Positions 98 to 47,220 are shown, counted from the first letter of the stretch. The stretch: 64,000 nucleotides of DNA from a virus (IMGVR_UViG_2756170314_000001:20614-84613); one strand, 5' to 3'. A program made the numbers and translations. The notes: generated from the letters alone by a model not told the origin.

Positions 98-685
98 TTA
101 AATAATTTTTTCATCATTGTAATAGTGATCAGAACATAACGCAAGATAATAACTCTTTTCTTCTACAAATGTTTCTCCAGATCGAGAGACTTTTCCATCA
201 ACAATTCGAGCATTATACTGAGCTATCTTAGAGCACTTAGAAGCTTCGCAACCTCTTGAGATTCGGTTTATGTTTTCGGAGGGTAGGATGGTTAAAAGGT
301 GACTAGATGAGTCAAATAACTCTCCTGTGAAGGTTAGATCAAGACCATAAAAATGAATAGGTACGTGGTAGCTTTCTGATAATGAAACAAATTCTTCAAC
401 GGTTTCTTTAGGAAGAAATTGAGATTCATCAATATAAATTGTTTGGGTATTTGTCATGAATATAATGATTTCTAATAAAGAAATATTTTGTTTGAATTGA
501 TCCTTGTTTAAGTTAATTGATCTTAGGCTGCGTCCATCTCTACTTTCAATTTTTCCTCTTGAAAAAGTATCTTCGGTTAAACTAACTGAAAGGGCAACTT
601 TTTCTTTAGGATCAATTAAGTAATCATCTATTAACTTTTTAGACTTTCCAGAACCCATTAAACCAGTATTAAAAGTTATATCCAT
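98..685 (-). CDS. tdk: Thymidine kinase
   Basis: GLMGSGKS P-loop, IDESQF, YGLDLTF, C-terminal Zn cysteines. Confidence 0.85.
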   Translation of the reverse strand: MDITFNTGLMGSGKSKKLIDDYLIDPKEKVALSVSLTEDTFSRGKIESRDGRSLRSINLNKDQFKQNISLLEIIIFMTNTQTIYIDESQFLPKETVEEFVSLSESYHVPIHFYGLDLTFTGELFDSSSHLLTILPSENINRISRGCEASKCSKIAQYNARIVDGKVSRSGETFVEEKSYYLALCSDHYYNDEKII

Positions 686-4080: not shown

Positions 4081-4638
4081 TTACCTCCTTGCTAAACATT
4101 CCTTATTAGAAAGATTGAACTCTTGAACTACCCTATTGTCAATGATTCTCTTAAATATTGTACAATGGTCAGGTTTCTTCTTACATAGAGCACAGTTTTT
4201 GTCTTTGAAATCTTCAAGATCTTTTGGGCCATCGAAAACACCAATATTGGAAGCCTCATAAATCTCAAATTCCAGTCTCGGGTTTTGACTATCAATATAA
4301 ACCCTTTCTGCAACTGGTAGAGCCACATCGTCATCAAGATAAACGCCGGCTTCCGTAAAAACATCGAATGGGACCTTCAAGAAATTGTTTGGGTCTTTTC
4401 TCTTGCGATCTAAGAAAAACTTGATTTTTACAAACACTAACTTTCCTTTTTCAGGTTGTTCCCACTCTTGTTCATTCATTTGGTCTTTTACATAATCAGT
4501 AAAGAAGGATTTGTATATCTTAGTCTCTTCTGATGGATATGCCTGAACAAATTTACGCCGGCCATTTGAAGAGACTTTGTAACTTAGATAGTTGTTAACT
4601 GATGGTGGTAATGGTGAAACTAACCGTAGGCTCTTCAT
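4081..4638 (-). CDS. rusA: RusA-family Holliday junction resolvase
   Basis: PPSVN N-terminus, KDPNNFLK...D...LDDD motif. Confidence 0.85.
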   Translation of the reverse strand: MKSLRLVSPLPPSVNNYLSYKVSSNGRRKFVQAYPSEETKIYKSFFTDYVKDQMNEQEWEQPEKGKLVFVKIKFFLDRKRKDPNNFLKVPFDVFTEAGVYLDDDVALPVAERVYIDSQNPRLEFEIYEASNIGVFDGPKDLEDFKDKNCALCKKKPDHCTIFKRIIDNRVVQEFNLSNKECLARR

Positions 4639-5183
4639 TTAATGTCACCATTCATAATATTAAGAATGTCCTCGATAACCTGGTCCTTATCCACTGAAAC
4701 AATAGTGTAATCAACTTCAAGCTCGAATCCTTCAAAATCTCTTTCATCCGCAGCTAATCTTCTTAAAAGCTCGTCTGAGTTATCTTTTCTATTCAATCCC
4801 CTGGCTAATCGAACATCGTAAGGAGTCATTAAATAGATTCCCACAACATTGTTCGAACCGTATTTTTCAGTTAGATCGCGATAACCAGAAGGCTCTGTAA
4901 TCACGATTTGGTCTTCAAAGAGTTTTATATCTTGGCTATTGATTGCATAGCTCCAGATGTCTCCGAACGCACTTCTAAAGCTATTCTTTGCAACTAATAA
5001 ACCTGATTCATCAAGCCACTCAAAATAATCTTGAGTAACGAAATGATAATCAACCCCATCAATCTCATTTGGGCGTTTTGGACGAGTTGTATAGGATATA
5101 ACCGTTTGATGACCTTGACGGATTAATGTCTCTAATGCTGTTGTTTTGCCAGAACACGTTGATCCAAGTAGAACATATATCAT
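4635..5183 (-). CDS. gmk: Guanylate kinase
   Basis: GSTCSGKT, SYTTRPKRPNEIDGVDYHF. Confidence 0.88.
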   Translation of the reverse strand: MIYVLLGSTCSGKTTALETLIRQGHQTVISYTTRPKRPNEIDGVDYHFVTQDYFEWLDESGLLVAKNSFRSAFGDIWSYAINSQDIKLFEDQIVITEPSGYRDLTEKYGSNNVVGIYLMTPYDVRLARGLNRKDNSDELLRRLAADERDFEGFELEVDYTIVSVDKDQVIEDILNIMNGDIK

Positions 5184-6018: not shown

Positions 6019-6393
6019 TTACCCCCGGACATAACCGAGTTTTGGATCCTCTTGCCGGCGATAATTCAACCGGTTCTTTTCTTTATACAATTTTAAAATT
6101 TCTTCCTCTGTCATTTGTGCAGCAATAAGAATATTTGTAAAGAAATGCAAAGCATCAATGATCTCTTCCTTAAATAGCTGCTGCTGTTTTTCAAGATCAT
6201 AATCTTCTTTTTCATACTTGCTGGACCATTCTTTAGCATAAGGAAGTTCATGAAGAGCTTCACTGAGTTCATCAATCGTCCAAAGCATCATAGTCTTGAT
6301 GTATGTGGCTTTTTCCTGAAGAGTCATGTTATCAAGGTCATAACCCATACGTTTTTGAAACTCTTTCTGACTATCAAGAATAAATTGATTCAT
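6019..6393 (-). CDS. All-alpha dimeric dUTPase/dCTPase (MazG-fold)
   Basis: DELSEALHE...EEIIDALHF...KNRLNYRRQ. Confidence 0.8.
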   Translation of the reverse strand: MNQFILDSQKEFQKRMGYDLDNMTLQEKATYIKTMMLWTIDELSEALHELPYAKEWSSKYEKEDYDLEKQQQLFKEEIIDALHFFTNILIAAQMTEEEILKLYKEKNRLNYRRQEDPKLGYVRG

Positions 6394-6474
6394 AGTAGTA
6401 GTTGAGTCCTTTCTCCGACTTAAATAATATTTTATTTATATTATTATTTAAGTTGTTATTTAATTCTTTATATT

Positions 6475-6500
6475 TATATCTGGTTATTGAAAAACGTAAA
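6475..6500 (-). promoter_or_regulatory. SigN-type promoter
   Basis: TTTACG-N14-GATATA. Confidence 0.8.
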
Positions 6501-6679
6501 TCATTTATTACATTATTTTTTAAATAAATTACTTATGACCGTCATGACTGAGGGTATTATATCGGTTATAACAGAAATGTAAATCATGACTGCGATATTT
6601 TGCATTTAGATGGTTGGTTATATTATTAAAGCAAACTAATTTCCTTGTAGAGCCCTGTAGAAGCAACAAAAGCCGCAGA

Positions 6680-9600
6680 TTACTCTGCGACTTTAGCCAT
6701 TTGAAGGTATAACTTCTCGGAGTCATAACCTTTGATTTTCATTGTGCTGTGCTTAAATTGAGTTCCTGTTGTCCGAAGGACGAATTCTTCTCCACGCCTA
6801 AAGCCAACCAGAACAAGTTTACTTCCTCGTTCGAACCAAGATGGATCAAGGACTTCTTTTTCTTTACCATGCACTCGAACGACCTTTTTATCATAGTGAG
6901 CAAACTGACCTTTAGAATATCTTACAGTTACAACGCCAGCATCTTGAGTTAGGACATGGACGAGAGACTTCTGCTTGTTTTTTTCAACTACAGTTCCAGC
7001 AATAACATCGATCTTGTATTGAGGGACATCATTTCCTCTTCTATTTTTTTTGTATCCAGTTATGACTGGGTTAGACGGCAGATCGTTAAAATTAGCAATA
7101 TTAAAGTAGTTGTGTAATGGCATGTAATCTAACTCATGCTTTTTAGAGTAGAATAGTAATGTTTCCATTTCCCAAGCTTCAATTGTTCCTTGGCAGTGTT
7201 TGGCCCAGAACTCTTTCATTTTAATCTTGTTAAATTGTTCAGCAGCTTCAGGAGAAGTAACCCACATTCTTAATGGCTCGATAATCTCTTTGTAAGCTTT
7301 ATCGAAGGTTTTCTGATCAACACAAAGTTTTCCGTCTTTAAATTCATAATCAACTTGATAAGGGTACGCTTGTAAGAAATCCATAAATTCTTGTTCGATT
7401 TCTCTTGTCATAGGGACTTTATTTCTTCCAAAAAGTTTATTTCTAAACTTATAGACTTCAAGCTCAGTTCCAAATCTTTGCTTATCAGCTAAGTGAATTA
7501 TGGTTGGTAGTTGGACCATTGTAAGCTTTTCTTTTTTAGGGGTAATTGCCTTAACAAAGTCGATCATTAAGAGTCGCCTGTTTGGATAAAAAGAATCAAA
7601 GCAACCAGCTTTTATTAACGAAACAACTTTAGCTTCAGAAATTAGACCAGGATCGACTATCTTCTTAAAGAAGTCCCCAAAGTTCTTATAAGGCCGATGT
7701 TCAATGATTTTTTCTATTGCATCTGTTCCTAAACCGGCAATCGGCTTGAGACCGAATAAGATCTTATTCTCTTCCTCTAAAGGTGTGAATTCTTTATTTG
7801 AAAGGTTAATGTCCGGGTTTAAAATATCACCTTTCATATCTCCAACAGCTTTAGCAATTGCACCGTATTTTGTGCCTTTCTCAGTTTCACCTATCATCCC
7901 CGCGTTAACTGATAAGCAAGCTGTCTTCCAATAAATCGCTCCATATCTATGGCAGATATTCATTTCAATCATTAAGATCATTGTGTACCCAGCAATATGA
8001 GGTAATGAGAAAGAGTATCCAAACTGAGGTTTAAGTTCTTTATTCCAAACATAGTCCAGGAATACTTTACGAGCCCCAGTTTTTTCTCCACCTTCATAAA
8101 ATTTAATTCTTTGATCTTCAATTAATTTTTGGTTTGCCTTTGCAACAGCTTTCCGGAATTTATTAGCTTGAGTTAGGCTGAACCCAGCAATTCTTTCATC
8201 CATAGCAAGCAACATTAGCCCTTCTTGAGTATCACAAATGCCATACCTATCAAGTAAATGTTCCTCAAGAATCTTAATTTCTTCCTCATTCAAACTGGCT
8301 GTTTTCATTTCTTCGTACCAATCTTGAATGTTGTTTTTGAAACGAACATATTTATCAAGTGGCTGCTCTCCATCAGTACTCAATCTCATTAAAGAGTTGC
8401 CAGCGCATAACTCATCAAAGGATCGAGGATTAATTTTAGTAAGTGCCTGCTGACCAACAGCTGTCTCAAATTGAAAAGCATTTAAAACATGACCTTTAAA
8501 TAGTAAATCGAACATTTTTGGTGATTCCATTTCAAGAACGTCTGGATGAAAATATTTATTGTAAGTTGCTCTCAATGACCCTTGCCATTCAATTTTCCCA
8601 TGTTCCAGAAGAAGATCTAAAGCTGTTCTAATTCTATCAAGAGCATTAATGGACAGATAATCTAATTTGAGCCCACCCATATAGATACTGTCTTCTGCGT
8701 CAAACTGAGTGATAGGCAGCCCAGAAGTTGTTTTCATCATGGCATTTTGTTTTATATATCCATCAGGGAAAATAATAACTCCTGAAGCATGTTGGCCACG
8801 TCCAGAAATTAATCCTTCAATAGAGAGCATTGCTTCTTTTAAACCTTCGTATTTATCAACTTCACGGCAAAATTCTTTTGCTGGTTTGGTTCCCTCTTTT
8901 GGGTTTCCGTAAAAACACTCGTGTAAGCTCCAGATGCCACCCTTACGAGTAGGAATTAGGTTAGCAATATTATGAGCAATATCTTTATCAATTCCTAATC
9001 CACGGCAAGAAGTTAAAACAGTTGAACGAGTACCTTCTGTTGTAAAAGTTCCCATGTTCAAGACGTTCTCTTCTCCATAGTGATCCTTTGTGATTTGAAT
9101 AATTTCATGACGCTTTGATCCTTCAGAATCCAAATCAATATCAGGTAATTCCGGCCGTTCTTTTGATAAGAACCTCCAATGAGGAAGATTAAATTTAATT
9201 GGATTCAGCTGGACAATGTCTAAAAGGTAATTCAGATAAAAGCAGCATGCAGATCCACGACTCACACCAACTAGCGAGACTTGCCACATCAAATCAACCA
9301 CATCTTTTGAAAGGACAAAATAAGATGAAAGTGGCTGACCAAGATTTTCAGTAATATGGTAAAGCTCATCAAGCTCAGTATTTATTCTTGAAAGGTTCTC
9401 TTTATTCAGATCTTGTTTCTTCGCAACCATACCTTCGGCAATTAAATGAAGATAATAACGATCGATGTCGTATCTGCTTTCAGCATATTTTCTAATGTAT
9501 TCGTATTCCATATAGTGAGGAACAAATAGTTGGCTCATTTCATATTTCGGAATATGAGCTTTCGGAACTTTAGTTTCTTGGGCAAATGTAATTGTTCCAA

Positions 9601-10522
9601 GTTTGGATCTTATCTCATTCGTATTATCAACAAGAACATCTAATAGTTCCTCGTCAAAGTACTCAAGCAATTCTTCATATCCCATAACGTAAGTTGTGGC
9701 GTAAAATTCATCAACTTCTCTCTCCCCTTCTGATGCTGTAAGGTATATTTTATGTGCCGGAGCATATTTTTTATTTAGATAATGGGCATCAGTAGAGACA
9801 ATACATTTAACGTTGTAAGCTTCCGACACTTTTAGCATCATTTCATTAGCTACTAATTGGTCACGGTTTTTTGATGGCTGCAGTTCAAAATAAAGATCTT
9901 CTCCAAAAACACCTTTTAACCAAACAATGAAATCATGTACTCGTTTTTTATTTTCAGGAGTAGGATTATCATGATATGAAATTAGAGACTGAGGAAGTTC
10001 TCCACCAACACAAGCTGTACAAGCAATAATTTCCCCTTGGTACTCCTGCATTAAAGACATTAATTCATCTTTGTACGTAGGAACACGTTCCATTCCACGG
10101 TAGAAGAAAGAGTTGTACCAAGCTTTAGAGCTAAGTTTTTTCAGACCTTCATATCCTTTTTGTGACTTGGCGATTAATATAAAGTGGTGGAAACTAATCT
10201 TTTGGTTTAATGATTTTTTCTCCATGGTATCTTCTTTATCAACCAGGTAAATTTCATTGCCGAACCCTAGTTTAAAATCTCCAAGACGCTCTTTATTCTC
10301 TTCAACATACTTATGAGCTTTTACATGGGATGATAAAGTTTCGTGATCTGTTATGACTACTCCACTCAATCCAATCTCATGGCAGTAATCAATCAATTCT
10401 TCTGGTTTATTAATCGCATCTCTTAGTCGAAAATTTGATGCATCAGTGTGTGAATGAGTTAAGAAAGGTTTTTTCTTATACTTTTCTATACTTCTATTGA
10501 TACTTCGTAGTAGTCGAGCCAT
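6680..10522 (-). CDS. dnaE: DNA polymerase III alpha subunit
   Basis: PHP HSH/TDH, SRGSA, PDIDLD, GQHASG, KLDYL. Confidence 0.95.
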   Translation of the reverse strand: MARLLRSINRSIEKYKKKPFLTHSHTDASNFRLRDAINKPEELIDYCHEIGLSGVVITDHETLSSHVKAHKYVEENKERLGDFKLGFGNEIYLVDKEDTMEKKSLNQKISFHHFILIAKSQKGYEGLKKLSSKAWYNSFFYRGMERVPTYKDELMSLMQEYQGEIIACTACVGGELPQSLISYHDNPTPENKKRVHDFIVWLKGVFGEDLYFELQPSKNRDQLVANEMMLKVSEAYNVKCIVSTDAHYLNKKYAPAHKIYLTASEGEREVDEFYATTYVMGYEELLEYFDEELLDVLVDNTNEIRSKLGTITFAQETKVPKAHIPKYEMSQLFVPHYMEYEYIRKYAESRYDIDRYYLHLIAEGMVAKKQDLNKENLSRINTELDELYHITENLGQPLSSYFVLSKDVVDLMWQVSLVGVSRGSACCFYLNYLLDIVQLNPIKFNLPHWRFLSKERPELPDIDLDSEGSKRHEIIQITKDHYGEENVLNMGTFTTEGTRSTVLTSCRGLGIDKDIAHNIANLIPTRKGGIWSLHECFYGNPKEGTKPAKEFCREVDKYEGLKEAMLSIEGLISGRGQHASGVIIFPDGYIKQNAMMKTTSGLPITQFDAEDSIYMGGLKLDYLSINALDRIRTALDLLLEHGKIEWQGSLRATYNKYFHPDVLEMESPKMFDLLFKGHVLNAFQFETAVGQQALTKINPRSFDELCAGNSLMRLSTDGEQPLDKYVRFKNNIQDWYEEMKTASLNEEEIKILEEHLLDRYGICDTQEGLMLLAMDERIAGFSLTQANKFRKAVAKANQKLIEDQRIKFYEGGEKTGARKVFLDYVWNKELKPQFGYSFSLPHIAGYTMILMIEMNICHRYGAIYWKTACLSVNAGMIGETEKGTKYGAIAKAVGDMKGDILNPDINLSNKEFTPLEEENKILFGLKPIAGLGTDAIEKIIEHRPYKNFGDFFKKIVDPGLISEAKVVSLIKAGCFDSFYPNRRLLMIDFVKAITPKKEKLTMVQLPTIIHLADKQRFGTELEVYKFRNKLFGRNKVPMTREIEQEFMDFLQAYPYQVDYEFKDGKLCVDQKTFDKAYKEIIEPLRMWVTSPEAAEQFNKIKMKEFWAKHCQGTIEAWEMETLLFYSKKHELDYMPLHNYFNIANFNDLPSNPVITGYKKNRRGNDVPQYKIDVIAGTVVEKNKQKSLVHVLTQDAGVVTVRYSKGQFAHYDKKVVRVHGKEKEVLDPSWFERGSKLVLVGFRRGEEFVLRTTGTQFKHSTMKIKGYDSEKLYLQMAKVAE

Positions 10523-10558
10523 TGTTAATACCTCATTTCTTTTGTATTACAAAGTATT

Positions 10559-10584
10559 TATATCTGGACCGGCAAAAACGTAAA
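10559..10584 (-). promoter_or_regulatory. SigN-type promoter of dnaE
   Basis: TTTACG-N14-GATATA. Confidence 0.8.
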
Positions 10585-10637
10585 TTGGATGACTGAAAAA
10601 TGTAAAAAAAATAACCACTCAGATGAGTGGCTATTTG

Positions 10638-11090
10638 TTAATCCTCTATTTTTTTATTTTTGTTTTTAAAGATGTGTGGCTGCGACACAAAGTATGTCAG
10701 CTTAATCTTCTTATGCCCTTTTAAGTACTTATCAATGAAGTAATTAAAGAATTGAACGTCATCTTCTAAATTAAACAAGTTAGAAGATCTTTGAAAAACG
10801 TTAATTCCAATTACTCGTTTCTCATTGTCGAATATAAAATGAACTGCTGAGATACATTCGTCACTTGATAACATAACTTGTCTTTCACTTGAGATCCACC
10901 CTTTATCATACTTGTAAAGTAAGTGTCTTAGTTGCATTTCGAGTGAAGTATAATAAGGTTCATCAGAGTCAGGAAAGGTATTCCTGGTCTGAGGATTAAT
11001 CATCGTGAAGGATTCATACAAGATCATTTCATCATTTTCTTTTAAATATTCAAGTTCGCCTACAGATGGGATTCGAGGAAATTGTAACAT
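10638..11090 (-). CDS. Miniature thymidylate synthase/dCMP hydroxymethylase-fold protein
   Basis: SERQ, EC, QRSSN, DDV, PHIF appear in the order of ThyA SRR, PC, QRSxD, PFN, AHIY. Confidence 0.55.
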   Translation of the reverse strand: MLQFPRIPSVGELEYLKENDEMILYESFTMINPQTRNTFPDSDEPYYTSLEMQLRHLLYKYDKGWISSERQVMLSSDECISAVHFIFDNEKRVIGINVFQRSSNLFNLEDDVQFFNYFIDKYLKGHKKIKLTYFVSQPHIFKNKNKKIED

Positions 11091-12064
11091 TACTCATCTT
11101 CTCCTCGGCCTGCAAGGTGATCCATATACTGTTTTGAGGCAATTTTCCATTCTTCAAGTTGATTTTTATATTCTTGGAACATTTTTTGAAACTTAGTTGG
11201 CCCTTCTGGAGGGTTGGTTCCATTAATATTTTCACGGTAGTCTTGATAAATAAAGTCTTTTTCATTCCATTCGAATTTATCTGAGTTTTCTTCTGGGAAG
11301 TACAGGTTTGTGGCATGTCCATTTCGAGCATTCTTGATGTAATGGAAACTTGGCATTTCAAAGTCGATCAGATCTAAATGAGCAATAGGATATGCCCGAC
11401 ACAGCTCAAGATACATTTGATATGCAATAATGTTATCTGACTTCGGTTGAATCTGGCGATCAATACGCTGCTTGCAGAATGCCAATAAATCTTTAACATT
11501 CATTGAAGCATAATAAAAGTTATCATGGTTTTTATTCAGAATAAGTCGAGCATCCATAATTGAAATCTTCCTAGAATCAATCATTTCAGCATAAAGCTCA
11601 CGACATTGACGAGTAAGATCTTTGTATCTTTCTAAAAACTCAGGGGAATTTTCAATAGACTCAGGAATAACTGCAGTTGTATGAGATAACCAACGATCCC
11701 CTGTACATTGAGCCGAGAACGAAAATGTTCTATGACGAATTAAATGGGTTACGTCTTGGACTGAAATTCCTTCAATTCGGAATGTTAAACGAATCGTTTC
11801 AAGTATTGAAGGTAGCGTTTTAAAGGTGAAGGCTTTTTCAATATCATCAACCACCTGTGCCATGCTATATGTTTCTTCAGGTTCATCAGCCCAGGTAGCA
11901 TTCACATATCCAGGGAGGTAATGAATGATGCTTTCCCAAGGAGTATAATCAACAAGAGTAACTTTAATATTCTCTAAATCATTTTTGAATTCAAAATCCG
12001 GCTTTTCACCAAAGCGAATTGGCATAGGCAATTTAACAGGCTCAAGGTTATTGTTTTTAGGCAT
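11090..12064 (-). CDS. thyX: Divergent flavin-dependent thymidylate synthase (ThyX-like)
   Basis: LTFRIEGIS, HLIRHRTFSFSAQ, DARLIL. Confidence 0.8.
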   Translation of the reverse strand: MPKNNNLEPVKLPMPIRFGEKPDFEFKNDLENIKVTLVDYTPWESIIHYLPGYVNATWADEPEETYSMAQVVDDIEKAFTFKTLPSILETIRLTFRIEGISVQDVTHLIRHRTFSFSAQCTGDRWLSHTTAVIPESIENSPEFLERYKDLTRQCRELYAEMIDSRKISIMDARLILNKNHDNFYYASMNVKDLLAFCKQRIDRQIQPKSDNIIAYQMYLELCRAYPIAHLDLIDFEMPSFHYIKNARNGHATNLYFPEENSDKFEWNEKDFIYQDYRENINGTNPPEGPTKFQKMFQEYKNQLEEWKIASKQYMDHLAGRGEDE

Positions 12065-12118
12065 AGTTTAATTCCTCCGATTTTTCAATATTTTTTTCAA
12101 TAAGAATTACAATATATT

Positions 12119-12144
12119 TATATCTAAAAGTATGAAAACGTAAA
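12119..12144 (-). promoter_or_regulatory. SigN-type promoter of thyX operon
   Basis: TTTACG-N14-GATATA. Confidence 0.8.
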
Positions 12145-12160
12145 TCGATTTAATAATTTT

Positions 12161-12394
12161 TTATTGATTTTTTTCAATAAATTTTAATTTCCCCTCAAAA
12201 ACAACCTCGTACTTTGTAAGTAATCCTTCTTTATTAACTGAGAACGCACTCACCAGTTTTTTTATCATCATGTGATGTTGCAAACCCTGCGACGAAAGAT
12301 AAGGCGGACTCTTGACTTCGGAAAGTTTCCATCCTTGATTCTTTAAATCCGAATTCATCTTCGTGCTCATAAACAATAATGAAGACTGATTCAT
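12161..12394 (-). CDS. Hypothetical protein
   Basis: Abuts RNase H stop. Confidence 0.55.
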   Translation of the reverse strand: MNQSSLLFMSTKMNSDLKNQGWKLSEVKSPPYLSSQGLQHHMMIKKLVSAFSVNKEGLLTKYEVVFEGKLKFIEKNQ

Positions 12395-12862
12395 TCATAC
12401 GGCAGCACCTCTTGTAAGTTCATCCATTGCCTCATTTGCTAATCTATCAGCAAGTTCATTATCCGGGATTCCTGAATGGCCTTTAACTTTGTTAAAAGTG
12501 ATAAACGGGAATTGTTCGACCAGTTCAATTAATTCAATCCATAACTGGCGATTCTCCACCGGCTTTTTACCAGCTGTAACCCATCCGTTATTCATCCATT
12601 TCTTATACCAACCTTGGTTCATACAGTTACACAGATATGCAGAATCAGTATTGATTTCTACAGGGATATTAGTTGTTTTTAATTGTTTAAGGGCTTCAAT
12701 AGCTGCACGAATTTCCATCATGTTATTAGTCACGTTTCTAAAGCCAGCCTTAATGGTTTTAACGTGGTCACCATATCGAAGAACTGCCCCAAAACCTCCG
12801 ACATTGTTATCTTTTCCGTTATTTCTTGCTGCGCCATCGCAGTAAATTACAACCTTTTTCAT
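12395..12862 (-). CDS. rnhA: Ribonuclease HI
   Basis: YCDGA, TNNMME, TDSAY, VKGHSG, NELADRLA. Confidence 0.95.
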   Translation of the reverse strand: MKKVVIYCDGAARNNGKDNNVGGFGAVLRYGDHVKTIKAGFRNVTNNMMEIRAAIEALKQLKTTNIPVEINTDSAYLCNCMNQGWYKKWMNNGWVTAGKKPVENRQLWIELIELVEQFPFITFNKVKGHSGIPDNELADRLANEAMDELTRGAAV

Positions 12863-13323
12863 TAAAGGACTCCCTCCTTGACAAGATCGTTGGCAATTTC
12901 CTCAGGAGTCTTATATGTTGTGTCTACAATGATCTTCTTCATTGGGGACTTATCAAAATAAAATTTATAAAAATGCTTATGCAAAGTATAATCAAGAATT
13001 TCGTGGCCGGTCTGAATGCATCGATCTATCAGGACTTTTGTGTCACAATCAAGGTAAATTACGAGTACGTCTTCCATCTTAGCTAGGTGTTTTTCTAAAT
13101 CATCATAGTTATCCCATAATTGAGGATCCCGACTAAACAGGTCACAGTATGTTTTAAAACCAATCGGTCCCCTATCGACTACAATATGTTTGTAGCAAGT
13201 GGCTTTATTTATAGCATGTTGTAAAGTTGATTTTCCCGAACGATCAACACCTTCAAGGATGATGATTTTTGGCTTAACAAATTCAGGAGTCGGCGCGACA
13301 ACACAAGTAGTTGAGTTAGTCAT
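12862..13323 (-). CDS. dNMP/thymidylate kinase-like P-loop kinase
   Basis: LEGVDRSGKST, VVDR. Confidence 0.8.
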   Translation of the reverse strand: MTNSTTCVVAPTPEFVKPKIIILEGVDRSGKSTLQHAINKATCYKHIVVDRGPIGFKTYCDLFSRDPQLWDNYDDLEKHLAKMEDVLVIYLDCDTKVLIDRCIQTGHEILDYTLHKHFYKFYFDKSPMKKIIVDTTYKTPEEIANDLVKEGVL

Positions 13324-13368
13324 AATTGTTATATCCTCCGATTTCTTTAATCTCTTTGCTTTACTTTG

Positions 13369-13400
13369 TATTTATATCTGGTGATTCGAAAACGTAAATT
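13369..13400 (-). repeat. 32-bp SigN promoter block, identical copy at 16667-16698
   Basis: tatttatatctggtgattcgaaaacgtaaatt at both positions. Confidence 0.9.
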
Positions 13401-13515
13401 GAAATATAAAAAAGACTACTATAGCAGTCTTTATTGGCATAACTTTTATATCCGACATAACTTTTATATCTGCTTTATAAAAAACAAAAAAGGCTGGAGA
13501 CAAATCTCCAACCTT

Positions 13516-14304
13516 TTATATAGCTAACAAATCTATTGATTTCATAAACTTTTCAATTCGAGTGATTACTTCATCAACTTTGTCTTCAGGGAACTCAAAC
13601 CACTCTGGTTGCTTAGTTTGACCAGTCTTTGGTGGAAGTCTGTATTCTTCAAATTGAGAGTGAATCAATCTTTCAACTGCTTTACCATCCTTACAAGGGA
13701 AAGTAGCGACGACTTCCAAGTCTCTTGAGGTATATGTATTCATGTTTGCTTCAGCATAACGTTCTTGCCAAGGCCGGGTAGTCATACCAATTTTGAGTTC
13801 ATTTCTAACTTTAGGGTGTCTAAAAATATATATCCATTGGAGACCCCCATAATCATCATTTTCGGGCTCGTCAGAGATAACTTCTGATGAATATATATAT
13901 TTAATCAAATCGGATCTCTGTAGCTCTATAAGGGCCTTACAAACATAATTTATGCATTGTTCAGCATAGTAGGCTGAGTTAGGTGGTTCGATAGCTGAAA
14001 CATCAACTTCTGAATCATAATATTTCAAAACAAGTTCATCTATAACTTCCAAGCCTTCTTTGTAGACTATTTTAGCTTGTCCAGCTTTAACTACCGTTGC
14101 TTTTACTCCATGCCTAACATGAGAGTGCCAATTAAAGAAGCCTTTCAAGCCAGGACATATAAAAGCAATGTACTTATAATCTCCAGACCTTGCACTCCTT
14201 CCAAGTATGTTTGTGGCTGTTAAAGCTTCATATTGGTTCATAGGAATATTGCCGTTTTCATTAAACAACCTGATCATTGAATTTGATAATTTTTCCGTAT
14301 CCAT
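13516..14304 (-). CDS. Protein with C-terminal GIY-YIG-like (T5orf172) nuclease domain
   Basis: WIYIF...LKIGMTTR...ER...VERLIH...EWF. Confidence 0.75.
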   Translation of the reverse strand: MDTEKLSNSMIRLFNENGNIPMNQYEALTATNILGRSARSGDYKYIAFICPGLKGFFNWHSHVRHGVKATVVKAGQAKIVYKEGLEVIDELVLKYYDSEVDVSAIEPPNSAYYAEQCINYVCKALIELQRSDLIKYIYSSEVISDEPENDDYGGLQWIYIFRHPKVRNELKIGMTTRPWQERYAEANMNTYTSRDLEVVATFPCKDGKAVERLIHSQFEEYRLPPKTGQTKQPEWFEFPEDKVDEVITRIEKFMKSIDLLAI

Positions 14305-14581
14305 AGCAGAATAATTTTAACATAAAATAGTGTTTTTATTATAGAGTCACTTTTTCGTTTTATTCTTCATATGCTAATAGCATACAGTGGTGGTAAGAAA
14401 TTTAAGGACGAGGATGTTTCATTTTTTGTTATGTTTCTGCGACACAAAATTAACGACATAAATAAACACAAAAATATTTACGTGGCTGTACAAATTTTTC
14501 ATTGCCTCAATGGGGATCCATACTGGACACACTATAACTTTGTTGATACAATCACTATATATTAAGTATATATTACGTAGT

Positions 14582-14643
14582 AATATTACATGATAATGTT
14601 ACATGATAATGTTACATGGTAATGTTGCATTGTTGCATTGTTG
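14582..14643. repeat. Short tandem repeats (AATGTTACATGAT-like units decaying into TGTTGCAT)
   Basis: aatattacatgataatgttacatgataatgttacatggtaatgttgcattgttgcattgttg. Confidence 0.75.
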
Positions 14644-14737
14644 TTTATCGTTTTCGAATGAATAAAATATTCGTAAACGAATAAAATAAAAAAGACCGAA
14701 GATGGTGCAACATCTTCGATCTGTAATAGAATAGCTC

Positions 14738-14820
14738 CTGAGGGAGACGGCTTTGTCTAAAAAGCTAAATTAAATGTAGGAACGCTCTGACCGTCACATC
14801 ATTCGTTCCTACTTTTTTTT
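14738..14820 (+). ncRNA. Predicted antisense (antitoxin-like) RNA convergent with comI
   Basis: TAGAAT -10 at 14727-14732; GTAGGAACG/CGTTCCTAC hairpin plus T-run over the comI stop. Confidence 0.5.
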
Positions 14821-14901
14821 GTTGGAATTGGCAAGCGACAAGATTCCGACAATAAGGAGACCAAATTGAAACATCAATCCAAGTGCGCTTTCTACTGGCA
14901 T
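14809..14901 (-). CDS. comI: Competence inhibitor ComI, 30-aa single-TM peptide (not in ORF track)
   Basis: MPVESALGLMFQFGLLIVGILSLANSNKKK; Gln12; AAGGAGGTG RBS. Confidence 0.88.
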   Translation of the reverse strand: MPVESALGLMFQFGLLIVGILSLANSNKKK

Positions 14902-15159
14902 ATTCTCACCTCCTTCTTTCTAGACATGGAGGTGTGCCGTCTGCCCTTTTCCAAAAGCCGTATCTATTACGTTACTTATACTTTAAATGAAAATCTTTCA
15001 AATTACAATATATAGACTGAGCTTGGAACGCAAATTAGGAGATTTGAGTTTTGTACTTTGTGTAAAAGCGCTTACACATTCTGCGAAAGGAGGATTTCTC
15101 TTTCTTACAAAATAAAAAAGAAGCCGAAAAATCGACTTCTCTACAAAAATACTACAGTA

Positions 15160-15720
15160 TCAATTTTCAAATTTACTCTCAATTGCTTTTTCCAATTTCT
15201 CAATTAAGTTTAAAACACGCTCTTGTGCCCCCTCATTAATACTCTTCATTTGATTTGTTTTATTCCCAAGCTCGATTTCGCTATTGGAATATTGAAGGAC
15301 AGAAACCGTATCGGCAAGCTTAACGATTAGATAAGCAATTGTCTCTTCTTTTTCTTCTTTGAGAAATTTTTCATAAGCTTCAGCATACTCAGGCATATTC
15401 TTTTTTAAGCTAACCACTTCAGCTCGCTCGAGGATCTCTGTTAAGTCGGGATTGTCCACTTTCGTATCATATGGTACATCGCCTAAGAAAATCTCCGGAA
15501 TATCATGAACTGCAGCGAACTCTAAAGCTTTGAGCTTAATATAATCATCAATGTTGTACATCTGACAGATCTTCAGGACCGTTGTAATCACGTAAAACGT
15601 ATGTTCAGCAACATTTTCATGTTTGATTTTCGGACGATTATTGTATCGGATAATCTCTCCAAGTCCTAAGATTTGTGTATCTCCTAAAGTCCGTACTTTT
15701 CCACGGTTATAGTAAGTCAT
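15160..15720 (-). CDS. HD-domain 5'-deoxynucleotidase (YfbR-like)
   Basis: ENVAEH, HDIPEIFLGDVP, VKLAD. Confidence 0.85.
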   Translation of the reverse strand: MTYYNRGKVRTLGDTQILGLGEIIRYNNRPKIKHENVAEHTFYVITTVLKICQMYNIDDYIKLKALEFAAVHDIPEIFLGDVPYDTKVDNPDLTEILERAEVVSLKKNMPEYAEAYEKFLKEEKEETIAYLIVKLADTVSVLQYSNSEIELGNKTNQMKSINEGAQERVLNLIEKLEKAIESKFEN

Positions 15721-15788
15721 AACTGTTGTGTCTCCTTTTTGTGAGTAATTGAGTTAAGTTATATCTGTTATAAAAGTTACGAGGGATG

Positions 15789-16067
15789 TTATCCCTCGAT
15801 TTTTCCTGCTTTTAAGAACATATCTCGAATCAGATCTTGCTTACCGTCAAATCCAACGATTCTTTCAATCTCATTTTCATCATCATCAACAAGTACCAAG
15901 ACTGGGGCTGCCATAATACCAAACTTCATAGCAGCATTTATTGATTCATCATCACCATTTGAAAGGTTATAAGTTATATCTGGCTCGACTCCCAGCTCAA
16001 AAGTATGGAAGTTCTCAAGCATCTGACAAGGACGGCAAGCATTTTGTTTAAATTTAATTACTTTCAT
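15789..16067 (-). CDS. Thioredoxin/NrdH-like redoxin
   Basis: CRPC motif. Confidence 0.85.
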   Translation of the reverse strand: MKVIKFKQNACRPCQMLENFHTFELGVEPDITYNLSNGDDESINAAMKFGIMAAPVLVLVDDDENEIERIVGFDGKQDLIRDMFLKAGKIEG

Positions 16068-16171
16068 GTTGGTTCCTCCATATGTACTGATAGATGATTA
16101 TTGAATAAAACCAATAAAAAATTATTTAATCAGTTATCTTTTGATATTAATTATTGAATTTATTAAATAAA

Positions 16172-16630
16172 TTATTCAATTAAACCTTCATAATAGATTT
16201 CTTGACCAAGTATGGCAGCTTCCAATTCCTCAACCGTTTTACACGCAGCTTTTCCGGACTCAGCTAGCATTAAGTTGAACATTCCATCTTTACCGAGTGT
16301 GAAGGCCACATAAATTACTGGAACACCTGATGCATAAGCATGTCCGGCTTCAAAAATGGTTCCCATATCTTTATCATCAGTGATGGCAATAACAAGCTCT
16401 GATTCTTCAATTCCTCTTACATTCATATCAAAAGACTTTTTGCGAACTTCAGGCGATGATATTGGGCCGATTGCTGATTGTTTTCTTGGTGAAAAGTAAG
16501 TTAATCCATGTTTTTCAAGTAATGTCTCGACCAAAGCAACACGAGTGATTTGATCTGGCTTGAAAAATGGCGCAGCAATGTAAACATGTTGTTTCTTGCC
16601 TGGAGATAATGATTTAGTAGTTTGAGTCAT
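16172..16630 (-). CDS. Nucleoside 2-deoxyribosyltransferase family protein 1
   Basis: YIAAPFF, SPR, DMGTIFEAG, NLML. Confidence 0.88.
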   Translation of the reverse strand: MTQTTKSLSPGKKQHVYIAAPFFKPDQITRVALVETLLEKHGLTYFSPRKQSAIGPISSPEVRKKSFDMNVRGIEESELVIAITDDKDMGTIFEAGHAYASGVPVIYVAFTLGKDGMFNLMLAESGKAACKTVEELEAAILGQEIYYEGLIE

Positions 16631-19391: not shown

Positions 19392-20432
19392 TCAAGCTAC
19401 TAGGATTCGGTTATGGAATAATTTCATGAAAGTTTCTGGGCCTTTATCTGAAGGGCTGTCTTTTAAATCGAGAAGACCTTCAACATCCCACATCACACTT
19501 GTTTCGAACCTGGAACTAAGCTTATTAATAAAAACACTATTGATTTTCTCTATGTAGTATTTTTCTTCGATACTCCCGACTTCTGTGAATTCTTTATCTA
19601 GTGCAATTATGACTCGTTCGATGCCTAAGTCATTTATTATTTCTAACTGAGTATCAGTGAGAGTTGACCCACTTAAAGCTACAGCAATAGACATATCAGG
19701 AAACATAGTATCTATCTGCATGACTGACTTTTCAGATTCACACAAGATGATTGCTCCGTAATCTGTTATTTGTTCTAGGTTAAAATTTAATCCATAAAGG
19801 CAGGCGCCGGTGGGGTGCTTTAAAAAACGATTTTTGTAAAACACGGGCATATATTTTTTTCCGGAGTTCACTAATTCCTGATTTAAGTTCCGGGCTCGGA
19901 CCCCAACAAGATTTCCTTTAAGATCATAGTGAGGTATGATTATTTGGTTATCTAAAACTGAGTACTTAATATTAAACTTCTTCATTGTCTTTGGAGAAAT
20001 GTTGTCTTCTATCCAAGACTTATGATAGTAGTCATAATAAGAATCAAGGATTTTCTTATCTAACAACTTAATTTCTGCTGCCATATCTTTTGGCTCAAAC
20101 TTTTCAAAAAAAGACATATCCACTTTATCAGAGCCATATTTTGAATTTCCGTATGATAATCCAAATCTCTGACAAACAAATTTAAATGACTCAAAAAAAG
20201 TTAACCCTTTTATTTTCCCTATTAATCCGTACAGGTCCATGTGGCCGCATTCCGTAAAGCAATAAAATGAATGAGAGTTAGAATAGTAGGTAAGCTTATG
20301 ACTATGACCGTTATGACAGATCGTTTTGCATATAATATTTGAACCTTTTAATTTTGGTTGGGCTCCTAACTCTTGAAGTAAGGTGAATATGTCATTTTCA
20401 CTCAAGGATTGTTTTACTTCGTTGGCATCCAA
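19392..20432 (-). CDS. dnaG: DNA primase
   Basis: Zn finger (CH...CFTEC), TOPRIM ESEKS and IALDKE. Confidence 0.85.
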   Translation of the reverse strand: MDANEVKQSLSENDIFTLLQELGAQPKLKGSNIICKTICHNGHSHKLTYYSNSHSFYCFTECGHMDLYGLIGKIKGLTFFESFKFVCQRFGLSYGNSKYGSDKVDMSFFEKFEPKDMAAEIKLLDKKILDSYYDYYHKSWIEDNISPKTMKKFNIKYSVLDNQIIIPHYDLKGNLVGVRARNLNQELVNSGKKYMPVFYKNRFLKHPTGACLYGLNFNLEQITDYGAIILCESEKSVMQIDTMFPDMSIAVALSGSTLTDTQLEIINDLGIERVIIALDKEFTEVGSIEEKYYIEKINSVFINKLSSRFETSVMWDVEGLLDLKDSPSDKGPETFMKLFHNRILVA

Positions 20433-30660: not shown

Positions 30661-31023
30661 TTATCCTTGTCTCTTGTCGTTTTCTTCATTAAACTTTTGC
30701 TTTAACCATTCAGCTGTAATTAATGCCTGGGGAACAACATATGAAGAGTTTTTTCTATATTTCAGAACCATGATCAACATAATTAAAGCAAGAGCTTCAT
30801 TTAAGGCTTCAGTAATCATAGTCCCCCATGTACCGAACTTGATAAAGATCATAATGGCATTAACGAGCATAAAGATCAAAGCGACATTTAGAGAAAGCCA
30901 GAATAATACGCTCATACCATTTACGTCTTTTATTACATACGTTTTTCTTATTTGAGGTAGGTAACAAATTGTCAGGAACACCGTTCCTAGTACTGGCAGC
31001 CAATTCAATAGAAAGTTTATCAT
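30661..31023 (-). CDS. PQ-loop (SemiSWEET-like) membrane transporter
   Basis: YLPQIRKT, three TM helices. Confidence 0.8.
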   Translation of the reverse strand: MINFLLNWLPVLGTVFLTICYLPQIRKTYVIKDVNGMSVLFWLSLNVALIFMLVNAIMIFIKFGTWGTMITEALNEALALIMLIMVLKYRKNSSYVVPQALITAEWLKQKFNEENDKRQG

Positions 31024-31541
31024 TGGGGAGCCACCTCTTTTTCAACTGATTTTTTTAATTCATCAGTTTTCTTTTTTAAAGCAGCTACTAAATCATCTAC
31101 GGTAGAGAATATTCCACCATTTGTTTTCTTGATCAAGCCAATAACATAAAGATTACGATATTGGAATTGGTTTTCGGTAATATCATCAACTAATGTTAGA
31201 ACCTTTTTAGCATTGTCATTTCCTAACTGCCGAACATCAGTATACAAACCAAGGATAGGTCGTCCAGTTGTTGAGAAAACTCCAATCTCTGCAGCAACAC
31301 CAGAATCAATTTCTACCCCATCTAAAACGGCAACTAAAATATCACTTGATAGGAGGTGTTCTGTATCAGCATCGGCGATTTGTGTACTTGTTGCACTTGC
31401 TTTTTTATCATTAACAACAACATTCTCTTGTGGGAGATATACCTCAAGTTCAGGGATTTCTTCTCTGATTTTTGCTGCTAATGTATCGTTAAAATTTCGG
31501 TCTGCGATTCCAAATAAACCGTTAGCTAAGTATAGTTTCAT
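31020..31541 (-). CDS. Nucleoside 2-deoxyribosyltransferase family protein 2
   Basis: LYLANGLF, YLPQEN, DSGVAAEIG, NLYVIG. Confidence 0.85.
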   Translation of the reverse strand: MKLYLANGLFGIADRNFNDTLAAKIREEIPELEVYLPQENVVVNDKKASATSTQIADADTEHLLSSDILVAVLDGVEIDSGVAAEIGVFSTTGRPILGLYTDVRQLGNDNAKKVLTLVDDITENQFQYRNLYVIGLIKKTNGGIFSTVDDLVAALKKKTDELKKSVEKEVAPQ

Positions 31542-31615
31542 TTTTATCAACCTCGTCTCATATTTGTTCAAAGAGAAGCCAACGAGAATTTCTTCTCATT
31601 GGCCTGATTAAAATA

Positions 31616-35328: not shown

Positions 35329-35853
35329 TTAGTGTTCCTCCGATTTTTTGATTTGATTTTCAATTTCTGCTTTGATCTTTGGTTCAGGTTGTTGCCAACC
35401 TTCCGGTTTAAGTATCTTTCCACTATTGCCTAAGTCATATCTCGGTTTACCATCCGGAAATAACTTGGCCATGTTTGCGTCTTGAACAATATCAAAGAGT
35501 GGTTGTGGTTTAACTCCAGCAACGACAAATGATCCTTGAACAAAATAATTAACATCAGTTAATGCATCCATTTGGTCAACAAGAATATCCTCAACCGGAC
35601 CTTTCTTAATCACTTTAGATTCTGCAGCAGTAATTCCCCGGATTAACTCTGTTACCAACCCATAAAATTTTGTTTTGTTTCCACCTGCTGTTGCATATAA
35701 GAATTCAACTAACTCTTCAGCCGTCCAGATGGTTCTGGCCAAAGCAACATCTTCAGGAATAGATGTTGGTTTTTCTGAGATTGGGTGATGGAATGCTCGG
35801 TGAAACTCTTCAACTTGAGATTTGGCATAGTCTAAACCTTTTTCTTCTTTCAT
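35329..35853 (-). CDS. MazG-like NTP pyrophosphohydrolase
   Basis: EFHRAF, EELVE, DALTD, ANMAK, GKILKPEGW. Confidence 0.8.
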   Translation of the reverse strand: MKEEKGLDYAKSQVEEFHRAFHHPISEKPTSIPEDVALARTIWTAEELVEFLYATAGGNKTKFYGLVTELIRGITAAESKVIKKGPVEDILVDQMDALTDVNYFVQGSFVVAGVKPQPLFDIVQDANMAKLFPDGKPRYDLGNSGKILKPEGWQQPEPKIKAEIENQIKKSEEH

Positions 35854-35864
35854 GATCATTCTCC

Positions 35865-36095
35865 TCAATGTACTAAATGTTCTTTCTTTAATGTAAAGGG
35901 GTTTTGATCTATTTCATTGCTGACTATTTCAGCCAGATCAACAATCGTTAAACCAAGGTCTTTAAGGTCTTCTTCACTTAATTCATTTACTGATTCATAT
36001 AAGAGCCAGGTCTTATCATTTTTAGTTCGAGTCGATAGATTCTCACGAAAACTCTTAACCTTCCTGGTTAAAGCTTCGTAACCTGGTGTGCTCAC
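35865..36095 (-). CDS. Hypothetical protein
   Basis: GAGGTG RBS, SigN promoter 36126-36151. Confidence 0.65.
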   Translation of the reverse strand: MSTPGYEALTRKVKSFRENLSTRTKNDKTWLLYESVNELSEEDLKDLGLTIVDLAEIVSNEIDQNPFTLKKEHLVH

Positions 36096-47068: not shown

Positions 47069-47145
47069 GTGCTCGTAGCTCAGGTGGTTAGAGCATCGGT
47101 CTGTTAAACCGAGTGTCGTAGGTTCGAATCCTACCGAGTACGCCA
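47069..47145 (+). tRNA. tRNA-Asn(GTT)
   Basis: Cloverleaf, anticodon loop CTGTTAA, TTCGAAT, encoded CCA. Confidence 0.92.
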
Positions 47146-47146
47146 T

Positions 47147-47220
47147 GAGGGTTTAGTTTAATGGTAAAACGTCAGTCTCCAAAACTGAAAATGTCGGTTC
47201 GATTCCTTCAACCCTTGCCA
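47147..47220 (+). tRNA. tRNA-Trp(CCA)
   Basis: Anticodon loop CTCCAAA, encoded CCA; T-stem has two mismatches. Confidence 0.85.

Follow-up and report, generated by a model that had tools for sequence, protein, structure and literature searches.

A minimal thymidylate-synthase fold in the SigN-driven nucleotide module of a pBS32-type plasmid-prophage, and a possible route to modified cytosine

The region from 6019 to 16630 of a 64,000-nucleotide stretch of viral DNA (IMGVR_UViG_2756170314_000001:20614-84613; the whole stretch is hereafter the window) is, to judge from its genes, a replication and nucleotide module driven by the sigma factor SigN, most of which is ordinary supply and salvage of deoxynucleoside triphosphates (dNTPs). 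Embedded in this module is a gene set that parallels the cytosine-replacement pathway of phage T4, and our tentative reading, to which we give a probability of about 0.4, is that such a pathway operates in the plasmid-prophage pBS32 when SigN is induced. The modifying enzyme is likely to be the product of a 150-amino-acid (aa) open reading frame (ORF), a minimal thymidylate synthase (TS) that we call the mini-TS, and not its neighbour ThyX-long, a divergent homologue of the flavin-dependent thymidylate synthase ThyX; the base so made would be a C5-modified cytosine. The window is part of an 84,613-bp record with direct terminal repeats, and region 6019-16630 has matches in 57 Bacillus plasmids. 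Because the best of these, an 84,215-bp plasmid carried by NCIB 3610, the ancestral laboratory strain of B. subtilis, matches at 99.8% identity over 100% of the query, the window is identified from its sequence as a pBS32-type plasmid-prophage, either pBS32 or a near-identical relative.

An original prediction made for this DNA had proposed a pathway for a non-canonical pyrimidine around dnaE. The genes that it named there are all present on the minus strand, as are tdk, gmk, a second nucleoside 2-deoxyribosyltransferase (NDT) and a MazG-like enzyme that it had placed elsewhere (Table 1), and a cytosine-type gene set is indeed among them, but most of the cluster belongs to ordinary supply and salvage.

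Fold and active site of the mini-TS

An AlphaFold2 model of the 150-aa protein, with 30 homologues as input, has a predicted local distance difference test score (pLDDT) of 92 and a predicted template modelling score (pTM) of 0.87. All 35 of the 35 matches listed in a Foldseek search with this model are TS-family proteins (best E 2.2e-5), and in a VIA structure comparison the top seven chains all belong to the TS superfamily, with Z of 9.2-7.3 against 6.4 for the first unrelated chain. The best VIA match is AfhB of HY126 (9iqc, 'monooxygenase with dCMP and FAD'; Z 9.2, root-mean-square deviation 3.6, 140 residues), and T4 dCMP hydroxymethylase (dCH, gp42; 6l18) scores 8.8, ThyA 8.6 and 8.3, and MilA 7.6. 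On the model, the ORF is a minimal thymidylate-synthase fold; the earlier label of a 150-aa ThyA-like protein is thus borne out by structure, though not by Pfam or by PDB sequences.

The 52 close homologues of the mini-TS are all hypothetical proteins and include Geobacillus phage GR1 and contigs of ~45-100 kb. Among 1.84 billion representatives, a profile search picked out 65 mini-TS relatives, and 52 of the 65, at 20-55% identity, form the family alignment. R70, C79, R101, S102, D111 and H139 are invariant in all 52 aligned sequences, and Y47 is kept in 51. The profile of these 52, unlike the pBS32 protein alone or the narrower A1 profile, links the family to T4 dCH (1b49, E 0.0022) and pairs C79 with the nucleophile C148, R101/S102 with R168/S169 (the phosphate-binding R166/S167 of ThyA), D111 with D179 and H139 with H216; R70 corresponds to the SRR motif of gp42 and AfhB, at the likewise phosphate-binding R126/R127 of ThyA. 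From the opposite direction, a phmmer search with T4 gp42 directly matches slightly longer ThyX-adjacent short TS proteins (best E 1.4e-6), and a distant mini-TS relative, the short TS of locus L059, passes the Pfam TS cut-off (25.1 bits against 24.3). A scan of contig genomes with A1 yielded no mini-TS, viral scans with P0206, P0188 and P0211 likewise gave none, and a metagenome scan for distant members returned eight loci, mostly duplicates or short.

Lee et al. (PMC13326640) describe three positions, in E. coli ThyA numbering, that bear on the chemistry of such a protein: Asp at N177 marks dCMP as the substrate, an acidic residue at L143 accompanies non-methyl products, and D169N is diagnostic of flavin-dependent 5-hydroxy-dCMP synthases, 9 of 9 D169N homologues tested having made 5-hydroxydeoxycytidine (5hodC). 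The N177 position is Asp (D111) in 52/52 members of the mini-TS family. The D169 position is Asn (N104) throughout the pBS32/GR1 clade (30/30), and family-wide it is Asn in 37 and Asp in 12 of 52; in the mini-TS this Asn comes after R101-S102-S103, which compares with R-S-Q-N in 9iqc. By spacing from the Cys, the L143 position is S76, followed by D77 and E78, in an alignment that is uncertain by 1-2 residues. The folate-binding elements of ThyA, namely D169 and the helices of the N-terminal half with E58, W80 and W83, are lacking in the mini-TS, where D169 is Asn and the N-terminal region is missing. The mini-TS carries a cytosine-type active-site signature and is a candidate dCMP C5-modifying enzyme.

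Its closest resemblance is to the 5-hydroxy-dCMP synthases (RB69 gp48, DLP3 gp80 and HY126 AfhB; 9iqc/9iqu), among which it has its best structural match; it shares with them the equivalents of C146, N177D and D169N, and its GR1-type relatives have a glycosyltransferase and a flavin-reductase-like gene nearby. It differs from them in being ~85 residues shorter (9iqu/9iqc have 234-238 aa), in probably having Ser with acidic residues next to it, and not Glu, at the L143 position, in its coupling to a ThyX homologue and in its Gram-positive host. Because of the missing ~85 residues and the probable Ser at L143, we do not file it as a 5-hydroxy-dCMP synthase; it looks like a new short branch that most resembles them.

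ThyX-long and its loci

ThyX-long is well above the Pfam cut-off for Thy1 (71.8 bits against 24.8), and in sequence it resembles the solved ThyX proteins only weakly (E 1e-4 to 2e-3). It shares with canonical ThyX (T. maritima TM0449, M. tuberculosis) the Thy1 domain, the RHR motif and the equivalents of R147 and R174, the uracil/phosphate arginines, but it is ~100 residues longer, extended at both ends. The canonical motif, RHRxxSxxxxS, here reads RHRTFSFSAQC (RHRxxSxxxxC), so that the last Ser (S88) has become Cys (C120), invariant in 31/31; E86 is an invariant Ala and R90 is Gly. Of the PDB entries that the family profile matches, the top one is the S88C mutant of the T. maritima enzyme (3g4c). 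Both extensions, of ~35 aa at the N-terminus and ~95 aa at the C-terminus, are conserved (alignment A4), and the latter has many invariant aromatic and acidic residues without belonging to a recognisable family; Pfam at E <= 10 finds nothing relevant in either. The idea that the C-terminal extension is the N-terminal half missing from the mini-TS was rejected, hhalign of A4 against T4 gp42 giving a probability of 1%.

The ThyX-long family has 969 matches at E <= 0.001, and among 50,697 GenBank phages only GR1 matches at E <= 1e-20. We examined 57 loci, 54 viral and 3 from metagenome-assembled genomes; since the locus search pattern contained the Cys motif, Cys conservation within the 57 is by construction, and because genomic context was drawn only from loci found through ThyX-long, the count of mini-TS adjacency is biased. 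The mini-TS occurs in 25/57: immediately downstream of thyX in 19 (five of the GR1 clade, one a kinase fusion), and as a kinase fusion 4-5 kb downstream in six. Ten of the 57 have <1.2 kb of downstream sequence, and at least 17 whose flank is long enough are without the mini-TS. In L016 and L061 the ORFs that follow thyX were considered as divergent mini-TS and rejected, that of L061 being gp56-like.

The original prediction had offered co-occurrence of the gene set in other phages as a check. Of the loci examined here, NDT homologues are present in 51/57, HD homologues in 47/57, DnaE in 28/57, and homologues of the region's pyrophosphatase and kinase in 15/57 and 13/57, and the mini-TS, as above, in 25/57. 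Pfam searches of 132 ORFs in 11 loci show a recurring string of NDT, HD, ThyX-long, in some the mini-TS, and then a polymerase, with NDT and HD directly upstream of thyX in 7/11. A Zn-dependent dCMP deaminase is frequent in the same 11 loci, and some have sugar-nucleotide genes. Because ThyX-long is found without the mini-TS and beside dCMP deaminase, we regard it as most likely an active dTMP synthase that corresponds to td of T4; these occurrences, together with its retention of R147 and R174, are why we consider the mini-TS the likelier modifier.

Some distant ThyX-long loci contain more unusual genes, namely a fusion of dUTPase_2 with uracil-DNA glycosylase, NAD-dependent sugar epimerases directly flanking thyX, a cytidylyltransferase and DUF1599 ('nucleotide modification associated domain 1') (L059:6353-7177, L036:10957-11940, L059:9106-10011, L031:17136-17519), and these hint at sugar-based DNA modification in those uncultured phages.

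Kinase, pyrophosphatase and deoxyribosyltransferases

Among the 65 mini-TS representatives, 17 are fusion proteins, 276-312 aa long, that begin with a P-loop kinase domain, which gives weak Thymidylate_kin matches in 9/17, one of them above the cut-off. The kinase of pBS32, encoded three genes upstream of the mini-TS, is related to this domain (hhalign probability 99.6%, E 1e-24; BLASTP 41% identity, E 1e-16), and because kinase and mini-TS are fused in other phages, we argue that what the mini-TS makes is the substrate of the kinase.

The pyrophosphatase, which the original prediction had called a dUTPase/dCTPase, proves to be a homologue of the dCTPase/dUTPase gp56 of T4 (BLASTP E 2e-11, 33% identity over 87 aa), which according to the T4 record removes dCTP/dCDP and dUTP/dUDP. 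A tblastn search of phages with the pBS32 protein matched 831 records, mostly T4-like 'dCTP pyrophosphatase'.

By sequence similarity the closest proteins to either NDT are true nucleoside deoxyribosyltransferases: among solved structures, 6evs is nearest to the NDT of the region (E 7e-9) and 7m5h to the second (E 1.5e-41), and a search of the PDB at E <= 0.01 gave no match of either to MilB or DNPH1. The proposed analogy with MilA/MilB and BcmA/BcmB, pairs of a TS-fold hydroxymethylase and an NDT-fold N-glycosidase, consequently gets no backing from the NDTs, although the cluster does bring together a cytosine-type TS-fold protein and NDT-fold proteins and MilA is itself a structural match of the mini-TS. 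The kinase fusion likewise argues for nucleotide anabolism and not for MilB-type base release.

A human-gut phage fragment, MT837767 (L008, 2740-7000), combines a kinase of the pBS32 type with dUTPase_2, a cytidylyltransferase, a HAD-like protein and a full-length, 313-aa homologue of TS in which the N177 position is Asp, and looks like an uncharacterised deoxycytidine-hypermodification cluster.

The sister phage GR1

The cultured, plaque-forming phage GR1 (OK896991, L002) is a temperate siphovirus that infects G. stearothermophilus and has a genome of 79 kb, of which 14000-50000 is syntenic with the early region of pBS32 (sigma factor, actin-like protein, tdk, ribonucleotide reductase (RNR), DnaB, primase, RecJ-like protein). 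The mini-TS of pBS32 is 64-69% identical to those of the GR1 clade and keeps all catalytic residues. Two further genes distinguish this clade. A nitroreductase-family flavoprotein is encoded directly upstream of thyX in GR1 and in 4/4 IMG/VR contigs examined, and a protein of 451-464 aa is encoded between the HD and kinase genes in GR1 and in 3/4 related IMG/VR contigs. The latter matches PHROG 2888, 'alpha-glucosyltransferase' (E 6e-53), and its only other relatives among GenBank phages are 424 T4-like alpha-glucosyltransferase (a-gt) records (~22% identity, E ~1e-4). Within the 57 ThyX-long loci, the glycosyltransferase (4/57) and the nitroreductase (5/57) are confined to the GR1 clade. The GR1-type relatives appear to carry the complete scheme, including glycosylation.

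The place of the glycosyltransferase is taken in the window (13516-15160) by a GIY-YIG/T5orf172 nuclease and a RefSeq 'holin-like toxin', which suggests replacement by a mobile nuclease cassette, and the place of the nitroreductase by a 77-aa ORF that does not align with the GR1 protein. GR1 also has a NUDIX protein, an amidoligase (PF12224) and a gamma-glutamylcyclotransferase (GGCT) that pBS32 is without, tblastn of the window giving nothing better than E 1 for any of them. The relationship to GR1 is relevant to the question whether pBS32 goes back to a functional phage-plasmid.

SigN promoters and the published regulon

The SigN regulon of pBS32 was defined by Burton et al. (PMC6751061) and covers the operons of this region, which are labelled 'nucleotide synthesis' and 'DNA Pol III' and are induced 85- to 401-fold by SigN (Table 2 of that paper). 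Because of that work, the gene cluster, its regulation and its general annotation are already published, and the idea of base modification is not. We found no literature on a pBS32 thymidylate synthase, and no account of a ThyX-long/mini-TS gene pair among the papers listed on ThyX, dCMP and phage 5-hydroxymethylation.

A regular expression for the published SigN consensus has 19 matches in the window, every one of them on the minus strand, whereas 200 shuffles average 0.095. The published promoter table (PMC6751061) does not include one of these, at 12144-12118, which is immediately upstream of thyX. The original prediction had described thyX and the mini-TS gene as a two-gene SigN unit, for which this predicted internal promoter, the one-base stop/start overlap of the two genes (TAATG) and the terminator-like hairpin after the mini-TS gene all speak; in the Rend-seq data, on the other hand, a single five-gene operon, zpdBCDEF, runs from the promoter at 13398 (PMC6751061 Table 2). 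Because of those three features, a two-gene unit nested within the published operon is a reasonable reading of the sequence.

Further SigN-type matches are found at 20490-20464 (minus strand), upstream of a primase-like gene (19392-20432), and at 748-722 (minus strand), upstream of tdk; the 19 promoters listed in Table 2 of PMC6751061 include neither. A 344-aa protein at 36880-37914 (minus strand), without a Pfam match, is assigned to PHROG 5767, 'sigma factor' (E 4e-107), and would be a second sigma-like protein beside SigN.

A proposed pathway and its alternatives

The pathway that we propose would begin with the gp56-like pyrophosphatase, which would convert dCTP (and dUTP) to monophosphates. 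The invariant Cys of the mini-TS would then attack C6 of dCMP so that a C5 substituent could be installed; by its signature (Asp at N177, Asn at D169) the predicted product is 5-hydroxy-dCMP, with a hydroxymethyl product as the alternative. The thymidylate kinase (TMPK)-like enzyme would phosphorylate this product, and the element's own DnaE would incorporate the modified nucleotide during SigN-induced hyper-replication, while ThyX-long, translationally coupled to the mini-TS, would most likely make dTMP alongside, the part that td plays in T4. In GR1-type relatives the base would then be glycosylated, a step that is missing in pBS32. The analysis shows the homologies, the fold, the signatures, the gene fusions, the synteny and the promoters, and we infer the substrate, the product, the activity of so short a TS and the incorporation into DNA.

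The model for this scheme is the T4 route from deoxycytidine to glucosyl-hydroxymethyldeoxycytidine (gp56 dCTPase/dUTPase, gp42 dCMP hydroxymethylase, gp1 dNMP kinase, a-gt and b-gt). Like T4, pBS32 has a gp56 homologue, a dedicated monophosphate kinase, its own polymerase, RNR, tdk and a TS-fold protein with a Cys nucleophile and an Asp equivalent to T4 D179, and its sister phage has an a-gt-like glycosyltransferase. Unlike T4, its TS-fold protein has 150 and not 246 aa, with Asn where T4 has D171; its kinase is TMPK/YorR-like, its polymerase DnaE-type and its thymidylate synthase ThyX-type; and the element, which has no glycosyltransferase, is a temperate plasmid-prophage that a dedicated sigma factor controls. 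The T4-type logic that the original prediction had invoked thus gains from the gp56 homologue, the cytosine-type mini-TS, the kinase fusions and the glycosyltransferase of GR1, and loses by the lack of both glycosyltransferase and nitroreductase in pBS32.

Several observations weigh against operation of this pathway in pBS32. With its 150 aa, where AfhB and T4 dCH have 234-246, the mini-TS has no counterpart of most of the N-terminal half of a full-length TS, and because the part that is missing holds the cofactor site of the full-length enzymes, its activity alone is uncertain; the available text of PMC13326640 reports no D169N enzyme of this size. The protein itself has no Pfam match at E <= 0.01 (PF00303 included), no PDB sequence is matched by it in phmmer or by the A1 profile, and hhalign of A1 against the single sequence of T4 gp42 gave a probability of 0.14%, though the same residues were paired. 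Phages of Microbacterium and Gordonia likewise have gp56 homologues, which bear the annotation dUTPase or MazG, and in related phages a Zn-dependent dCMP deaminase and dUTPase accompany the module, which fits plain dTMP supply. There is no trace of the GR1-type glycosyltransferase or nitroreductase in the window (tblastn, nothing better than E 1), and the glycosyltransferase is found in 0/72,556 PLSDB plasmids. The GR1 paper (PMC10237291), in its available text, has Illumina sequencing only and no DNA chemistry, and particles of pBS32 have never been observed according to PMC10601692.

It is quite possible, at less than even odds, that the module does nothing beyond precursor supply and that the DNA stays canonical. 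ThyX would then make dTMP, the pyrophosphatase would be a dUTP-sanitising dUTPase and the kinase a dTMP kinase, NDT, HD, tdk, gmk and RNR would rebalance pools for hyper-replication of an AT-rich element, and the mini-TS would be a non-catalytic or accessory nucleotide-binding remnant. The window does hold ordinary supply genes (RNR, NrdI, thioredoxins, tdk, gmk); the true-transferase affinity of both NDTs, the R147/R174 equivalents of ThyX-long and its occurrence without the mini-TS, often beside dCMP deaminase, agree with this, as do the published annotation of 'nucleotide synthesis' (PMC6751061) and the missing glycosyltransferase. A remnant, however, would not hold Cys, Arg, Ser, Asp and His invariant across relatives of only 20-30% identity or be repeatedly fused to a kinase, and Asp at the N177 position speaks against binding of dUMP or dTMP. 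Alternatively, the pathway may be real in GR1-type phages and vestigial in pBS32, whose lineage would have lost the glycosyltransferase and a flavin reductase and would express the rest without meaningful DNA modification. The restriction of both genes to the GR1 clade, the nuclease and the 77-aa ORF that stand in their places and the want of known particles (PMC10601692) all fit. We nevertheless hold this to be unlikely: the catalytic residues have survived at 64-69% identity to the GR1 clade, host flavin reductases could stand in for the missing enzyme, the available text of PMC13326640 names no reductase partner for RB69 gp48, which works in E. coli, and the mini-TS is intact in 41/41 carrier plasmids. 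The last point is weak, as these plasmids are nearly identical (all 41, from the 72,556 of PLSDB, carry it at >=97% identity).

Two other readings concern the role of the mini-TS itself. Because thyX is so tightly coupled to it, we have kept the idea, quite unlikely in our estimate, of an undescribed two-component flavoenzyme that replaces cytosine by 5-hydroxy- or 5-hydroxymethylcytosine in lytic-phase DNA. The contribution of the truncated TS fold would be limited to the dCMP site and the Cys nucleophile. Reduced flavin or a flavin-borne one-carbon unit, which the mini-TS would have lost the ability to bind, would come from the divergent ThyX, with the change of S88 to Cys, a remodelled substrate loop and the ~100 extra residues as the features invoked, and the fused or neighbouring kinase and the gp56-like dCTPase would complete the replacement. 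The module occurs widely among uncultured phages and, in B. subtilis NCIB 3610, stands under SigN. It is more improbable again that the mini-TS product is not meant for DNA but is a free modified nucleotide or base, released by NDT or HD, with a role in host takeover, toxicity or counter-defence. The company that NDT and HD keep with ThyX-long (51/57 and 47/57 loci) and the analogy with MilA/MilB point that way; the NDTs, however, resemble transferases and not hydrolases of the MilB/DNPH1 type, the kinase fusion points to a triphosphate, and SigN toxicity was later found to be independent of the SigN regulon (PMC10601692).

Other features of the window

Coordinates are collected in Table 1. 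In addition, two adjoining tRNA genes, Asn(GTT) and Trp(CCA), lie at 47069-47220 (plus strand), at the start of the plus-strand (structural) half.

Table 1. Genes, promoters and other features of region 6019-16630, with related genes elsewhere in the window
Feature	Position	Strand	Basis
dUTPase_2-type all-alpha NTP pyrophosphatase (P0003)	6019..6393	-	Pfam dUTPase_2 28.9 bits, cut-off 22.9
Two SigN promoters: PzpdH2, 6500-6474; PzpdH1, -35 box at 6584	6474..6584	-	match Table 2, PMC6751061
DnaE-type Pol III alpha (PHP, NTPase, finger, HhH)	6680..10522	-	Pfam
SigN promoter PzpdG of dnaE	10584-10558	-	Table 2, PMC6751061
Terminator-like hairpin, directly 3' of mini-TS gene	10636-10609	-	12 pairs then T run; consensus match only
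Mini-TS (P0001), 150 aa, candidate dCMP C5-modifying enzyme	10638..11090	-	fold and active-site profile
ThyX-long (P0002), 324 aa, divergent flavin-dependent thymidylate synthase homologue	11090..12064	-	Pfam Thy1, 71.8 bits, 8e-20
SigN-type promoter directly upstream of thyX	12144-12118	-	consensus match; -35/-10 spacing as PzpdG
77-aa ORF, in place of nitroreductase of GR1-type phages	12161..12394	-	no Pfam match
RNase H	12395..12862	-	Pfam RNase_H, 7e-35
TMPK-like P-loop kinase (P0004), candidate kinase for mini-TS product	12862..13323	-	PHROG 761 'thymidylate kinase'
SigN promoter PzpdB	13398-13372	-	identical to Table 2 sequence, PMC6751061
GIY-YIG/T5orf172 nuclease, in place of glycosyltransferase of GR1-type phages	13516..14304	-	Pfam; synteny with GR1
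HD YfbR-like 5'-deoxynucleotidase	15160..15720	-	Pfam 1.5e-18
Thioredoxin-like protein	15789..16067	-	Pfam matches weak, below cut-off; RefSeq: thioredoxin family
Nucleoside 2-deoxyribosyltransferase (NDT)	16172..16630	-	Pfam 2e-14
SigN promoter PzpcX of NDT	16696-16670	-	SigN promoter
tdk	98-685	-	Pfam
gmk	4635-5183	-	Pfam
Second NDT	31020-31571	-	Pfam
PRA-PH/MazG-like	35329-35868	-	Pfam

Implications

Should the proposed pathway prove wrong, the 150-aa protein would still stand as an unexplained, strongly conserved TS-fold family. Should it prove right, it would be the first modified-cytosine system in a Bacillus plasmid-prophage and would give a role to the conserved NDT-HD-ThyX-mini-TS-polymerase string of dozens of uncultured phage contigs. 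It would also bear on the lethality of SigN activation, since a gp56-like dCTPase would starve host replication. Because SigN can be induced at will in NCIB 3610, the prediction is directly testable there, as well as in GR1.

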